A DNA stretch of 64,000 nt, from assembly GCA_965366625.1 (NCBI GenBank), contig CBDUGP010000022.1:21165-85164 (forward strand), written 5' to 3'. This DNA is from an uncultured bacterium (GTDB lineage Bacteria > Acidobacteriota > Thermoanaerobaculia > Multivoradales > J023). Positions 12,302 to 57,026 of the stretch are shown here, one piece after another. Position numbers and translations under genes: made by a program. The notes under the pieces are model-generated. The model had not been told where the DNA came from, did no database searches, and saw nothing but the letters and a program-made list of their open reading frames with translations. Every line of letters begins with the position of its first letter. Within the stretch, counting starts at the first letter, position 1.

Positions 12302-12342
12302 TTCCCGATCGACACCCCGATCGACAATAAGGCACCCCAGCC

Positions 12343-12383
12343 AACGGGGTTCCCGCGGCTACGCGGGAACCCCGTTTTTTTTT
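12343..12383 (+). terminator. Rho-independent terminator
   Basis: 15-bp perfect stem AACGGGGTTCCCGCG-GCTA-CGCGGGAACCCCGTT followed by a T-run to 12383. Confidence 0.9.
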
Positions 12384-12412
12384 CGGGCAGAGGGAAGTCG
12401 TCCGCTGGGTCT

Positions 12413-12781
12413 GGTGCCTGGCACCACGTCCCACCATCTTCCTGCCCGGATCAGGTGCCTGGCACCACACCCACCCAGATCACGTGCCTGGTACCGCCAC
12501 GAGATCGCACCGCCACGAGATCTGCTCCATCGGGTCAGGTGCCCATCGGGTCAGGTGCCTGGCACCACACCCAATCACCACCGGGTCAGGTGCCTGGCCC
12601 CGGCACGGGATCTGCTCCACACCCAGATCACGTGCCTGGCACCGCCACGGCACCGCCACGAGATCTGCTCCACCGGGTCAGGTGCCTGGCACCACACCCA
12701 ACCACCATCTTCCAACCACCATCTTCCTGCCCGGGTCAGGTGCCTGGCACCACCCATCCTGGCACCACCCATCCAGGCACC
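12413..12781. repeat. Cluster of family-A palindromic repeats (GGTGCCTGGCACC), all in the same orientation
   Basis: Perfect 13-mers at 12413, 12454, 12554, 12681 and 12739, with degenerate copies at about 12484, 12538, 12589, 12632, 12758 and 12773. Copies are often preceded by CGGGTCA or GGATCA and interleaved with CCACGAGATC(T/G) and CCACCATCTT modules. Confidence 0.9.
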
Positions 12782-12937
12782 ACCCATCCACCATCTTTCA
12801 GCCAAATTGCGGATCTCGGCTATCGATATCGCTAAGATGAATAGGGGCCTCGTGTTGAACACTGACGGGGCCACTCCCAGCCCTGACCCTCTGTTCCATC
12901 CCCCTAAATCCAATCCCCACATTTTGAGGTGGTTTCC

Positions 12938-20658: not shown

Positions 20659-20726
20659 TAGGGTAGGGTGCCTGGCACCCTACCTAGGGTTCAGTGCCTG
20701 GGTAGGGTGCCAGGCACCCTACCCAG
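20659..20726. repeat. Pair of long perfect palindromes built on the family-A core and bounded by GTAG/CTAC
   Basis: 20659-20685 is TAGGTAGGGTGCC-T-GGCACCCTACCTA (13-bp arms). 20696-20726 is CCTGGGTAGGGTGCC-A-GGCACCCTACCCAGG (15-bp arms). They lie about 150 bp upstream of the RAYT-like gene. Confidence 0.92.
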
Positions 20727-20876
20727 GACCCAGGCGAGTGGTCGGCCCTGCTTAGAAAAGTTTCCAAGAATCCCCGCCAGCTACAGAATTCGCCGCTCCG
20801 ATTGCGTCTAGGAACTAGTAGTGACCCACCAGTGTGTCCACTGGTGACTACAAAACCTCGACGAAGGAGCGAAGCC

Positions 20877-21818
20877 ATGGCCAGACATCCCCGCATTCAC
20901 ATCCAATCTCGGCCTTTGATGGAGTTTTCCAATCGAATTGCCCAAGGACTTCACCTCCTTCAACCACAGAGCACGCTCAATCAGCTCGTCGTGGGCGCTT
21001 TGGCTCGAGCACAAAAACTCTATCCGATGAAAATCCATGCGGCCGCATTCTTAGGCAACCACTGGCACATCTTGGCCACTCCCGACTCGGTGGAGCAGCA
21101 AGCTCGATTCTTCTGCCACTTCACCCGGGCGATCTCCATCGAAATTCAGCGTCTCCGGGATTGGGAGGGAACCGTCTTCCCCAAGCGCTATCACGCTGCG
21201 GAGATTTCAACAGAACCGGAGATGCAAATGCGCCGCCTAAAGTACGTCCTGAGCAATTCCGCCAAAGAGGGACTTTGCGCATCTCCCTTGGACTGGCCTG
21301 GAGCCCCATTCGCCAAGGCCTTGGTCACCGGCGAGCCCCTAAGAGGAATATGGATCAATCGCAGCGCACTTTATAAGGCGCGTCAACGGGGCAAAGATGT
21401 TTGTGATCTCGACTTCGCGCAAGAAGAGCTACTTTTCCTCGATCCCTTACCGTGTTTGGAGCATCTAGACCCCAGCTCTCAGCGCTCTTGTATTGCGGAC
21501 ACAATCCGAGAAATCGAGCATGAAACCCAATTGAAACACCATGAGCAGGGCACGAATCCGATCGGTTCCAAAAAGCTTTTGGCCATGAATCCACTGCGTC
21601 GCCCCAAGTCTTTCGTAGGCTCCCCGCAACCCAGATTTCACGCTTGGAATCGGCAGATCAGGCAGGACATGTCAGAGGCGATGCAGTGGATCATTGAGTC
21701 CTACCGAAGTGCCGCCTCCGACCTCAAGCTCGGGTTAAAGCATGCAATATTTCCCGAGAATTGCTTTCCGCCGGGGCTCCCCTTCGTGCCCGCCGGCTCC
21801 ACTCAGATTCACTCATAG
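20877..21818 (+). CDS. REP-associated tyrosine transposase-like (RAYT, Y1 HUH) protein 1
   Basis: Start re-called at ATG 20877 (AAGGAG RBS). N-terminal MARHPR, HUH motif GNHWH, FPKRYHA, Tyr helix RLKYVLSN and GLCASPLDWPG. Confidence 0.85.
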   Translation: MARHPRIHIQSRPLMEFSNRIAQGLHLLQPQSTLNQLVVGALARAQKLYPMKIHAAAFLGNHWHILATPDSVEQQARFFCHFTRAISIEIQRLRDWEGTVFPKRYHAAEISTEPEMQMRRLKYVLSNSAKEGLCASPLDWPGAPFAKALVTGEPLRGIWINRSALYKARQRGKDVCDLDFAQEELLFLDPLPCLEHLDPSSQRSCIADTIREIEHETQLKHHEQGTNPIGSKKLLAMNPLRRPKSFVGSPQPRFHAWNRQIRQDMSEAMQWIIESYRSAASDLKLGLKHAIFPENCFPPGLPFVPAGSTQIHS

Positions 21819-21902
21819 GCAGCTTCGACACTCCATCGATACCCAACGCGGAAAGAGAAAAAGACGAGCTCCGTCGCGGTCCCCGGCTCAAGACATTGCG
21901 AA
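21809..21902 (-). pseudogene. Internally deleted, diverged remnant of the 3' end of a paralog of CDS 23238-24296
   Basis: 21809-21834 matches 23238-23263 at 25/26 nt (encodes SVEAAYE*). 21835-21902 matches 23354-23421 at 56/68 nt (SQCLEPGTATELVFFSFRVGYR vs SQFLELGTTTEPVFFYFRVGDR). Confidence 0.8.
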
Positions 21903-21925
21903 CTGAATCAAGACCATCTGAGTCA

Positions 21926-22130
21926 GTGCCTGGCACGACCACGTTGGACACCACCCGGTTGCGGGCTGAGTCGGTGCCCAAGCTGAGCCAGTACCTGTCA
22001 CCACCGGGTTGGAGTACCACCCAGGTGGGATGCCTGGCACCACTCCTTTGGTGGGCGGGATGCCTGGCACCATCCTTTGGATTGGCACCACTCCTTTGGT
22101 GGGCGGGATGCCTGGCACCATCCTTTGGAT
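21926..22130. repeat. Degenerate family-A repeat cluster including a perfect 48-bp tandem duplication
   Basis: GTGCCTGGCAC at 21926, GTACCTGTCACC at 21991 and GATGCCTGGCACC at 22029, 22059 and 22107. 22035-22082 is identical to 22083-22130. Confidence 0.88.
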
Positions 22131-23237: not shown

Positions 23238-24296
23238 TCACTCATAGGCGGCTTCGACACTCCGTCCGCCACCACCATTGAGCCAAAGTCGGGCATGGGC
23301 GCGGACGGTGCCTTCATGGTCGACCCAGGGTGCCTCTAGGTAGCCTTTTCCATATCGATCCCCGACTCGGAAATAGAAAAAGACGGGCTCTGTCGTGGTC
23401 CCCAGCTCGAGGAATTGGGAATAGCCGTCGGCCGGGGCTTCGAGCATCGACCGCAGGGCAGCCCGTGGACCTGTTTCCGCGGGAAAGTGACGCGTTACAC
23501 CGCCGATGGAAGAGAAGTCGAGGGTCGCGCCGACCGGGCGTCGATGGACCGGGGCGACCGGCACGTTTTTAGCGCGATTCTCCGTCACGTCGACCAACGC
23601 GGCCTTGCCGTCGGCTGCGGTGGTTGTGGTTAAGCGCAAGACGAAGGGATCGTCTTGCCCGGCAACTTTGGCCGGCAGATCCCTCAGCCCGACCACACGT
23701 GCCTTGCGGTTGCGAGGGTCGAGGGCCAAGACCGCAGCCTTTGAGGCGTCTCCCGCCACCAGCTCGCCTTGGACCGCCTGCAACTCCACCGGATTCTGAA
23801 GCGGCCGCAAGGTCACCCGCAGACGGGTTTCGTCGACCCTATTGCTCTCCGAAGTGGCGACGGCGAAGTTCAACGTCTCGCTGCGATAGCCGTCCTTGCT
23901 CAAACGAACTCGCACGTCCGTACAAGGACTGCATTGATAACGAAAAGCGCCCGTGACTTCCTCTTTGTGGCGAGTCGACACCCGGAGTTCCGGTCTTTGC
24001 GGGTCAAATGAGCCTTCCGTGACCGACAAACGCACGCCTGCCAGGGGACGTCCCGTGGACGCGTCGACCACGGCGCCGCCCACCCGGATCTCACCGCTGA
24101 GCTTGCTTTCCAGGAGCTCCCGAACCGGAGGCAGTTCGGGAGGAGTCTGTGCCGACAGATAAGACGGTGCCAGGCACATGACCCCTAGGCACATGACCAC
24201 CAGGCACATCCATGCCCTATGAGCGGGTGCCAGGCACGTCCTTGCCAGGCACGTCTTTGCTAAGGCCACCATCGCAATTTCTTTAACCGTATTCAT
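23238..24296 (-). CDS. Exported protein with a carboxypeptidase-regulatory-like domain; candidate immunity/partner protein
   Basis: Starts 3 nt after the giant ORF stop, with a GGGAG RBS. The signal peptide is built from repeat-derived CLA(R/P)/MCL units. Domain block VGGAVVDASTGRPLAGVRLSV...VRVRLSKDGYRSET. Confidence 0.78.
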   Translation of the reverse strand: MNTVKEIAMVALAKTCLARTCLAPAHRAWMCLVVMCLGVMCLAPSYLSAQTPPELPPVRELLESKLSGEIRVGGAVVDASTGRPLAGVRLSVTEGSFDPQRPELRVSTRHKEEVTGAFRYQCSPCTDVRVRLSKDGYRSETLNFAVATSESNRVDETRLRVTLRPLQNPVELQAVQGELVAGDASKAAVLALDPRNRKARVVGLRDLPAKVAGQDDPFVLRLTTTTAADGKAALVDVTENRAKNVPVAPVHRRPVGATLDFSSIGGVTRHFPAETGPRAALRSMLEAPADGYSQFLELGTTTEPVFFYFRVGDRYGKGYLEAPWVDHEGTVRAHARLWLNGGGGRSVEAAYE

Positions 24297-47677: not shown

Positions 47678-48211
47678 GGGGAGGCTCCTCGCGGCGGACA
47701 GACCGCGGACACACGGGAATCCCAGCACGACCCGCGTTCGCGAGGTTCAACGGACATTCAGACCAGGGCGGTCGGCACACATTGAGCCGCGATCGGGTTT
47801 CGAGCCGAGATCGGAAGGGACTCGGGACAAAATAAACTCGCGATTTCTGGCCCTGCCGCTTTTTTACCGAGTCGACAAGCGGTCTCCTCAATGGGGTCAG
47901 CAGGGGTAAAACTGACCACCGAGTCAACGCGCTTGGCGGGCAAGGGCCAACAGAGTCATAGACGAAACCGAAGGGAGACTTTACACAGACTGCCGCATCT
48001 TGGCAAGTATCTCCCCATCTACATGTCCACATAGGATCGGCAGATCAGTGGATCTGATCACTTTGCATCCGAAAAAGCGAAAGCTCTTCCGGCAGAATGC
48101 CGCACCTCGACGTACCCTGCTCACTCACAGGGTCCATCGCCCTACCCTTCTGACTTTACCCAACGGACAACTTTTCTAGACAAGGAAACCCACCCTCGGA
48201 GCAACAACCCA

Positions 48212-48501
48212 GAACAACTACCTGGTACCGGTCAACTTAGAACAACCAGAACAACTACCTGGTACCGGTCAACTCAGAACAACTACCTGGTACCGGTCTA
48301 CCCCGAACAACTACCTGGTTCCGGTCTACCCAGAACAACTACCTGGTACCGGTCTACCCCGAACAACTACCTGGTACCGGTCCAAACAAGGACCACGACC
48401 CGCCGGAACAACTACCTGGTTCCGGTCCAAACAGCAACACGACCCGCCGGAACAACTACCTGGTTCCGGTCCAAACAAGGACCCGGACAACTACCTGGTT
48501 C
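48212..48501 (+). repeat. Direct-repeat array of family-B 22-mer GAACAACTACCTGGTWCCGGTC
   Basis: Full copies start at 48212, 48249, 48277, 48305, 48333, 48361, 48406 and 48450, with a partial copy at 48487-48501. Start-to-start spacing is 37, 28, 28, 28, 28, 45, 44. Confidence 0.92.
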
Positions 48502-55586: not shown

Positions 55587-55864
55587 TGGATCTCCCTGAG
55601 CCGGATCTATGCCTTAGTCGCAAATTCAACCTAACTGAATCGATTTAGTGTATCAATTGGCCGAGCCCCTGCCCAGCCTCTCACCCAGGGGACACGTTGT
55701 TGTGACCAGAAGCTACGGACGTCGTGAATAATCGATCGGTCAACCCGGAACGTGCTGATACCCGACCACTCCCGTGCGTTATCAAGACACACGTCCCCCC
55801 ACCCAAATCTGGCTCTACGTCTGGTTCTGATCATGTAAGGCAGCGGACAAAGGAGAAATCGAAC

Positions 55865-56955: not shown

Positions 56956-57003
56956 GAACATCTACCCGGTACCGGACCGAAGAACATCTACCCGACACCG
57001 GAC
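56956..57003 (+). repeat. Two family-B-like repeats upstream of RAYT 2
   Basis: GAACATCTACCCGGTACCGGAC (56956-56977, 19/22 identical to the 48.2-kb unit) and GAACATCTACCCGACACCGGAC (56982-57003). Confidence 0.8.
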
Positions 57004-57026
57004 CGAAATCCCCTTAGAATAACTAC

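Follow-up and report, generated by a model that had tools for sequence, protein, structure and literature searches.

To our knowledge, the repetitive extragenic palindromes (REPs) of bacteria and the tyrosine transposases associated with REPs (RAYTs, or TnpAREP) have been studied almost solely in Proteobacteria, and the rules formulated for them (a GTAG guide, hairpin recognition and inverted doublets) come from few enzymes. Here we describe a gene of this kind, W1, from an uncultured bacterium of the Acidobacteriota (Thermoanaerobaculia), together with the short palindromic repeats around it. The gene lies on a stretch of 64,000 nucleotides (assembly GCA_965366625.1, contig CBDUGP010000022.1, positions 21,165 to 85,164), referred to below as the window. 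W1 is an intact member of a large, unclassified RAYT-like (TnpAREP-like) lineage of HUH/Y1 proteins, found in this analysis only in Acidobacteriota.

The closest described systems are the REPtrons, TnpAREP/RAYT genes with flanking REPs (Escherichia coli yafM/4er8; class 2 of Quentin et al. 2018, PMC6006769; Corneloup et al. 2021, PMC8266576). TnpAREP proteins of subclass 2.4 accompany "double foot" REPs, in which a 5' GT[AG]G and a 3' C[TC]AC close one palindrome; these proteins measure ~194 amino acids (aa), carry a YIxNNP motif and come from Cyanobacteria and Bacteroidetes, and the GTAG foot is a rule of the family (PMC6006769). Subclasses 2.1 (TIRYT) and 2.3 have large C-terminal domains, with helix-turn-helix-type or other tails, and are reported without REPs (PMC6006769; PMC3733652). 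Class 3 and some TIRYTs occur in Acidobacteria, and the structures flanking class 3 and subclass 2.6 genes are "atypical" in not being of the GTAG kind; class 3 proteins are ~178 aa long with a YV[VI]xEQ motif and a CnGA foot (PMC6006769; PMC3733652).

The protein encoded by W1 shares with the REPtron enzymes the HUH/Y1 fold and, apart from the P of the tyrosine motif, the RAYT-type tail (Y-x-x-x-N, K-x-G-x-V and DWP); an earlier note on this DNA had called it RAYT-like. Its AlphaFold model (predicted local distance difference test score 89.3, predicted template modelling [TM] score 0.86) has the E. coli TnpAREP structure 4er8_A as its top Foldseek match (E 3e-6, TM 0.67), and the top ~30 matches are TnpAREP, ISDra2, IS608 and IS200 TnpA. 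A search of the PDB with a family profile also matched ISDra2 TnpA and 4er8, and the HUH motif and Tyr of W1 align with those of both proteins. The sequence NHWH occupies residues 61-64, and H62, H64, Y123 and DWPG are near-invariant among 24 family sequences. Further along, K-E-G-L-V and DWPG of W1 align with K-H-G-W-V and DWPF of 4er8, and the W and the N at +4 from the Tyr also line up. The HUH motif and Tyr are near-invariant over more than 1000 clusters of proteins, an argument that nuclease activity has been retained. Among profile databases, NCBIfam REP_Tyr_transpos (NF047646, an equivalog) matched W1 at E 2.8e-12, and Pfam Y1_Tnp (PF01797) scored 12.3 bits against a cut-off of 23, while matching 15 of the 24 family members at E <= 0.01 (best 2.8e-7).

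Other features separate the family from described enzymes. In the tyrosine motif, which reads Y-V-L-S-N-S in W1, the whole family retains the N and has G or S where the class-2 signature Y---NP has P, so that REPtron-type NP becomes N-G/S. Family proteins are about twice as long as those of REPtrons (~310 aa) owing to a conserved C-terminal half; residues ~160-300 are conserved (PLPC, FP..CFPPGLPF), and no Pfam domain or known fold was matched by this half of W1. A long Y1 protein with an extra C-terminal domain recalls subclasses 2.1 and 2.3, from which the family differs in lacking a Pfam match there, and the motifs NH[WF]H and Y-x-L-x-N-[GS]-x-KEGL set it apart from class 3. Judged by length, motifs and taxonomy, the W1 family fits none of the 12 subclasses that Quentin et al. 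2018 (PMC6006769) distinguish. Searches with PADLOC and PHROGs returned no match.

A search of genome contigs with the W1 protein alone found no relative. Relatives were instead collected by an alignment-based scan of genome contigs, which found 182 and from which 78 loci were kept; all 78 belong to Acidobacteriota, mostly to metagenome-assembled genomes (MAGs) of Thermoanaerobaculia. Among proteins clustered at 50% identity, 1182 clusters match the family at E <= 1e-30, almost all of them 300-330 aa long. Genomes carry several divergent paralogs, at least nine in one MAG, and this number is above the RAYT norm. As in REPtrons, such copies are of low identity and are not the identical copies expected of an insertion sequence (IS): W1 and its paralog in the window, W2, share 45% identity, and the nine loci of the MAG just mentioned are 36-52% identical to W1.

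Repeats related to those at W1 accompany the gene family across many genomes, in agreement with the earlier proposal of a RAYT-repeat system. The word AGGTGCC/GGCACCT is enriched about fourfold around the genes, with 1.51 copies per kb within 500 bp and 0.37 per kb farther away, whereas control words have a ratio of ~1. When only DNA free of open reading frames (ORFs) is counted, the densities are 1.81/kb near and 0.66/kb far, compared with 0.55/kb and 0.48/kb for the controls. Nine-mers repeated at least three times in the flanks of ~25 loci contain AGGTGCC (for example CGAGGTGCCAG, ATAGGTGCC, GGCACCTTAAAT and GGTGCCACC), and near-exact copies of the window's repeat core number 15 in 732 kb of related loci, 8 of them within 400 bp of the gene.

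The arrangement of these words is that of REPtrons, in which short palindromic repeats bracket the gene in opposite orientation and are also dispersed between genes. GGCACCT lies downstream in 30 of 71 loci (42%) and in 24 of 271 background windows (9%), with AGGTGCC upstream in 17/71 (24%) compared with 20/271 (7%). Downstream copies peak 200-300 nt past the gene, which is where the W1 cluster lies. W1 itself is bracketed by cognate-type repeats on both sides (20661-20727 and 21922-22130), and opposite orientation is a family-wide though not universal trait. The sense word upstream and the antisense word downstream thus make up a REPtron-like bracket, which argues against insertion of the gene into a same-strand array. 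Sequence comparison across loci identifies (A)GGTGCC(A)GG as the probable conserved recognition word, rather than GTAG, and here too the family differs from REPtrons with their GT[AG]G foot.

Upstream of W1 stand two copies of the sequence GTAG-GGTGCC-W-GGCACC-CTAC, one with T at its centre (20663-20683) and one with A (20702-20722). They are the only exact copies in the window, where chance would give none, and no further copy was found elsewhere in the window with up to 3 mismatches allowed. The earlier note had described two perfect palindromes with 13- and 15-bp arms closed by GTAG and CTAC; their presence, feet (20663-20666 and 20680-20683 in palindrome 1), centres and the 15-nt arm hold, and the first arm proves to be 11 nt long. 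The two palindromes constitute a 28-nt inverted pair with an 8-nt spacer. Folded as single-stranded DNA, palindrome 1 yields -11.3 kcal/mol and palindrome 2 alone -17.6 kcal/mol, and together they are predicted to form a single 28-bp hairpin (-37.7 kcal/mol, z = -10). Rfam matches to miRNA precursors were all sub-threshold, merely reflect this long hairpin (20663-20722) and were discarded. The stop codon of the upstream gene lies 14 nt before the start of palindrome 1.

The GTAG...CTAC feet at these two sites resemble those of subclass 2.4, for which REPs so closed have already been described (PMC6006769), and the feature is therefore not new in itself. Unlike subclass 2.4, W1 has the foot confined to two copies. 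No copy of the GTAG-bounded 21-mer was found in related genomes, and the genome-contig collection gave one match, in an unrelated Firmicute. There, on a contig of an Anaerobutyricum MAG (L081:690-760, JBGUIF010000017.1) without a Y1 gene of the W1 family, GTAG-GGTGCC-A-GGCACC-CTAC is part of a perfect palindrome of greater length, and GGTGCCTGGCACC occurs once more ~50 nt upstream; this may be a coincidence or an unrelated hairpin family. A looser 25-mer recovered five unrelated long hairpins in metagenome contigs, with no Y1 gene near.

Dispersal of the repeats in the organism of W1 was counted within the window. The 13-nt core GGTGCCWGGCACC has 27 matches with up to 2 mismatches where 2.5 are expected, a count inflated by coding matches. 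Matches inside genes were considered as insertions and rejected; they encode in-frame VPGT (three times, in one frame of a 7590-aa ORF) or GAWH (in another gene) and are thus coding coincidences. The 7590-aa protein is encoded by a single ORF (24300-47072, minus strand), whose VPGT(Y)-type motifs mimic the repeat core at the DNA level. Genuine non-coding W1-type copies fall into four clusters: array A, the palindrome pair at 20661-20727, the cluster downstream of W1 and a small cluster near the end of the giant ORF (Table 1). Copies in array A read GGGTCA-GGTGCC-T-GGCACC-ACACCC, which leaves the pair adjoining W1 as the sole copies of the GTAG...CTAC form. Directly before array A, a GC-rich hairpin followed by nine T (12332-12381) resembles an intrinsic terminator, which places the array beyond the end of the upstream transcription unit. 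The degenerate cluster that the earlier note had seen after the gene was recovered with units at 21926, 22029, 22059 and 22107, at the position where homologs carry CTGGCACC(T). Within it, a perfect 48-nt tandem duplication (22035-22130) suggests recent slippage or unequal exchange between units.

Repeat copies of the W1 family are arranged in same-strand tandem arrays, unlike the inverted pairs of REPtrons (REP doublets forming hairpins, REPINs, and bacterial interspersed mosaic elements, BIMEs), and spread as direct arrays, which the earlier note had proposed, finds support in the window and in relatives alike. Array A is one-stranded, and inverted pairing of the REPIN type was not seen among the units, the sole candidate for an inverted doublet being 20661-20724. 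In the MAG that holds loci L058 and L059, the unit adjoining the genes is the 18-mer GAGGTGCCAGGCACTTCG. The genome collection has 111 stretches with this 18-mer; most belong to three MAGs, and ~22 of them to the L058/L059 MAG. Neighbouring copies lie 24-66 nt apart and form 21 same-strand pairs and no opposite-strand pair. None of the 80 stretches fetched from these 111 contains a family gene. This palindromic unit, CCGAGGTGCC-A-GGCACTTCGG, has a single central base between arms of ~10 nt; the inner core agrees with that of the window, and the outer arms differ yet remain complementary. A near-loopless short core, with weak folding in many units, further separates these repeats from those of REPtrons. 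Other stretches (L100, L104, L137, L141, L157 and others) that belong to a MAG labelled Myxococcota (JAKLJY01) carry GAGGTGCCAGGCACTTCG arrays of up to 6 copies.

Other identities for the repeats were considered and dismissed. The core contains TGGCAC, as a sigma-54 promoter would, and no copy has a TTGC element at the right spacing. The arrays were not accepted as CRISPR because their spacers repeat along with the units. A scan for sigma-70 promoters and terminators gave nothing useful.

The second paralog, W2, has repeats of a different type. Each paralog appears to keep its own, GGTGCC-W-GGCACC for W1 and GGTACC-R-GGTAG-WTGTTC for W2, just as repeat type differs by paralog in the REPtrons of Pseudomonas and Stenotrophomonas. 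The W2-type repeat is also found upstream of two relatives (L003 and L004). Within 45 kb there are thus two paralogs with two types of repeat and two arrays, as one would expect of enzymes that each act on a substrate of their own.

Table 1 Features of the W1 and W2 loci and their repeats in the 64-kb window (window coordinates).
Feature	Position	Strand	Remarks
Array A, at least 8 W1-type units (..GGGTCAGGTGCCTGGCACCACACCC.. / ..GATCACGTGCCTGGCACCGCCACGAGATC..)	12411..12790	+	Single strand, 29-71 nt apart, in gap between two genes
Palindrome 1, GGTAGGGTGCC-T-GGCACCCTACC	20661..20688	.	Perfect 11-nt arms, 20662-20672 / 20674-20684
Palindrome 2, CCTGGGTAGGGTGCC-A-GGCACCCTACCCAGG	20697..20727	.	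Perfect 15-nt arms, 20697-20711 / 20713-20727
Conserved upstream block, CAGAATTCGCC...GCGTCT	20784..20809	+	W1 variant of family box TTT[CA]CGTC[TC]
W1 5' leader stem-loop (predicted)	20794..20871	+	CGCUCC 20794-20799 pairs with GGAGCG 20866-20871, covering the Shine-Dalgarno sequence
W1, 313-aa HUH/Y1 protein	20877..21818	+	HUH H62-W-H64; Tyr candidate Y123; N127; DWPG 139-142; C-terminal half ~170 aa
W1 downstream degenerate cluster (GTCAGTGCCTGGCACG; GGGATGCCTGGCACCA x3)	21922..22130	+	105-310 nt past stop codon
Small W1-type cluster (GGTCATGTGCCTGG..., GACGTGCCTGGCACC)	24167..24260	-	Between end of giant ORF and next gene
Array B, ~9 W2-type units GG(T/A)ACCAGGTAGTTGTTC	48203..48500	-	Head to tail, periods 28-44 nt; 7.4 kb from W2
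W2 downstream box, ACGTGTGTCT	55785..55794	-	After small hairpin and G-run; family-wide 3' box
W2, second paralog, 315 aa	55865..56812	-	45% identical to W1; HUH (NHFH) and Tyr intact
Two W2-type repeats, (T/C)CGGGTAGATGTTC preceded by GGT(A/G)(C/T)C	56956..57007	-	Upstream of W2

Strand-specific boxes at both gene ends, some with small hairpins, are a further difference from REPtrons, as is the accumulation of at least nine paralogs that a genome of this lineage can reach. Such boxes might correspond to the subterminal hairpins of IS200/IS605 elements. The upstream box TTT[CA]CGTC[TC] stands on the sense strand in front of 40 of 76 genes (53%; 0.3% of background windows), usually 17-24 nt before the ATG, and W1 carries the variant GCGTCT at 20804-20809. 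Downstream, 50-100 nt past the stop codon, 24-36% of loci have a small covarying hairpin, GGGAG and then A[GC]GTGTG[TC]C, with a background below 1%. W1 carries the corresponding word AGTGTGTCC within its leader (20831-20839) and not downstream. The 5' box of one clade folds into a perfect hairpin of 11-12 bp, and in the clade of L009, L011 and L039 the flank repeats contain ACGTGTGTC. The upstream box might serve as an operator, as an enzyme site or as an element like a promoter, and the boxes at both ends may be promoter or untranslated-region elements or sites for the enzyme. The neighbours of W1 are an FAD oxidoreductase and a 149-aa ORF without a Pfam match.

The leader of W1 contains a third hairpin, GTAGT/gacc/CACCAGTG/tgtc/CACTGGTG/ACTAC (20818-20851), which ends 25 nt before the ATG at 20877. 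The earlier note had listed it alongside the palindromes, and it is present as described; being single-copy in the window, it falls outside the repeat family. Predicted RNA folding of 20790-20882 yields one long stem-loop (-36.6 kcal/mol, z = -4.3), of which this hairpin is the apical part and in which AGTGTGTCC is included. Translation of IS200 is controlled by a 5' leader stem-loop. Similarly, a leader hairpin that pairs with the Shine-Dalgarno sequence is predicted for the Y1 genes W1 and W2 and for those of eight further members of their clade; in W2 and these eight the pairing runs through the segment just past the conserved CGTC box. The helices differ in sequence (CCUCCAUG/CAUGGAGG, CCAUAGAG/CUCUAUGG, CCAAGG/CCUUGG, CUCCUAGG/CCUAGGAG). 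A shuffle control did not separate this Shine-Dalgarno pairing from chance pairing, and RNAalifold predicted no pairs on a MAFFT alignment of 10 leaders, which is not a structural alignment. Most family members have no such leader, the box lying 17-24 nt before the ATG. By analogy with IS200, the predicted stem-loop probably keeps translation of W1 low. Three relatives (L001, L003 and L004) have an earlier ATG, preceded by a GGAGG of its own, ~90-100 nt upstream of the start codon in the alignment; it could belong to a short upstream ORF or to an N-terminal extension.

Taking protein and repeats together, we think it probable, with some reserve, that W1 is a domesticated RAYT-like nuclease and ligase of single-stranded DNA which, as in a REPtron, would act on cognate REP-like repeats. 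The palindromes at W1 would be the cognate repeats of this lineage in a REPtron layout, with GGTGCC-W-GGCAC(C) units whose strand upstream of the gene is opposite to that downstream of it, and with more copies dispersed between genes. From the behaviour of TnpAREP and IS200/IS605 TnpA, we infer that the enzyme would bind the folded repeat on single-stranded DNA, nick beside it through a covalent Tyr-5'-phosphate link and rejoin it elsewhere. Insertion adjoining existing copies, together with slippage, might then produce head-to-tail arrays, as the biochemistry of these enzymes suggests (PMC8266576, PMC6006769). The GTAG/CTAC of the two gene-proximal copies would be a local version of a variable outer stem.

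Several observations weigh against this domesticated-RAYT reading. W1 scores 46.7 bits with the NCBIfam RAYT model, below its cut-off of 80, and is without the P of the class-2 signature. Array units fold weakly (-4.5 kcal/mol, z = -0.5) and units in several genomes are barely palindromic, so that recognition may rest more on sequence than on a hairpin, in contrast to classical REPs. The exact word AGGTGCC is found within 500 bp in only 43 of 71 loci (~60%), and W1 itself carries GGGTGCC and GGCACCA; the tag is accordingly loose. Six metagenome contigs from separate assemblies that carry an identical W1 gene (L087-L092) show no repeat polymorphism, their overlapping flanks being 100% identical to the window. 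The GAGGTGCCAGGCACTTCG arrays in the Myxococcota-labelled MAG might be due to wrong binning or labelling of that genome, to horizontal spread, or to repeats that exist without the gene. As an observation apart, several of the short-read contigs L087-L092 begin or end within the palindromes or the downstream cluster, as would happen if assembly broke off where sequence is repeated or self-complementary.

The earlier note had instead favoured an E. coli-type RAYT that reads a 5' GTAG foot, with the GTAG-bounded loopless palindromes as the mobile unit. The two gene-proximal copies do have GTAG and CTAC directly at the core, W2-type units also contain GGTAG, and W and R residues are conserved in the region that contacts GTAG in TnpAREP (PMC6006769). 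We nevertheless consider a GTAG guide unlikely, given that GTAG/CTAC is not enriched near 80 family genes (0.97x), the dispersed W1-type copies carry GTCA...ACAC, the orthologous repeats in L003 and L004 read GTTG, and the 21-mer has no other copy in the window or in related genomes. Within 500 bp of homologs, where the earlier note had suggested looking for the motif, the GGTGCC word is enriched and GTAG/CTAC is not; GTAG/CTAC is also absent from the dispersed window copies and from the repeats of other genomes. The repeats might also form an independent intergenic family, either 3'-end or structural elements of mRNAs or the substrate of another enzyme, in or beside which Y1 cassettes settle, much as IS1397 and ISPpu9 target REPs. 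We give this a small but appreciable chance: arrays lie far from any family gene, AGGTGCC is raised in distant ORF-free DNA as well (0.66/kb), palindrome 1 starts just past the stop codon of the upstream gene, and the same 13-nt tip occurs in long hairpins of unrelated organisms. However, insertion into same-strand arrays predicts same-strand flanks, and what is seen are opposite orientations and a fixed downstream position. Nor does this account fit the finding that W1 and W2, separated by 35 kb, differ in the type of repeat they carry, and paralogs of 36-52% identity are old and hence not recent insertions.

Two further explanations concern what kind of element or protein W1 might be. If the gene and its 5' and 3' boxes made up an autonomous IS200/IS605-like insertion sequence, the boxes and repeats would be its left and right ends, an arrangement in keeping with the strand specificity of the boxes, with frequencies (53% upstream, 24-36% downstream) far from a background below 1%, and with the perfect 5' hairpin of one clade. 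The marks of such elements, namely near-identical copies, a short Y---Q TnpA and often a tnpB partner, are nonetheless absent from W1. Its closest copies in the window and in the nine-paralog MAG are as divergent as given above, the protein is a 313-aa Y---N enzyme with a RAYT-type tail and not a 150-aa Y---Q TnpA, no tnpB-like gene is a neighbour, and the locus is identical across six contigs of separate assemblies; the probability of this explanation is very slim. Alternatively, a dimeric protein could bind the 13-bp palindromes as double-stranded DNA, with no transposition-like chemistry; the binder might be the Y1 protein itself, its C-terminal half acting as a regulator. That the conserved part of the repeat is short and symmetric and not a stable hairpin would suit such operators, as would a conserved C-terminal half that matches no known fold. 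Yet the catalytic HUH motif and Tyr are near-invariant over more than 1000 clusters, and tandem arrays of 8-9 units in gene-poor gaps are atypical of operators, so that we judge their chance to be slim.

We tentatively raise the possibility, in our view a doubtful one as yet, that the W1 family is a distinct class of REPtron, with a long Y1 enzyme, a new C-terminal domain and a GGTRCC-W-GGYAC tag in place of GTAG. Its repeats would spread in head-to-tail arrays, the lineage would have diversified to many paralogs in each genome, these paralogs would co-evolve with repeat types of their own, and the boxes (TTTTCCGTCT upstream; hairpin-GGGAG-AGGTGTGTCC downstream) would be its own processing or control sites.

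The W1 system matters to the field of REPs and RAYTs and is not a new principle. Because the lineage retains the catalytic core and REPtron layout and has changed the tag, the shape of the unit and the mode in which copies build up, it lends itself to asking, as in a natural experiment, what the recognition and spread of repeats cannot do without. Two paralogs with distinct repeat types within 35 kb constitute a ready-made experiment on specificity. A family of more than 1000 protein clusters, labelled in databases as hypothetical or automatically as "RayT", thereby gains a name and a testable function.

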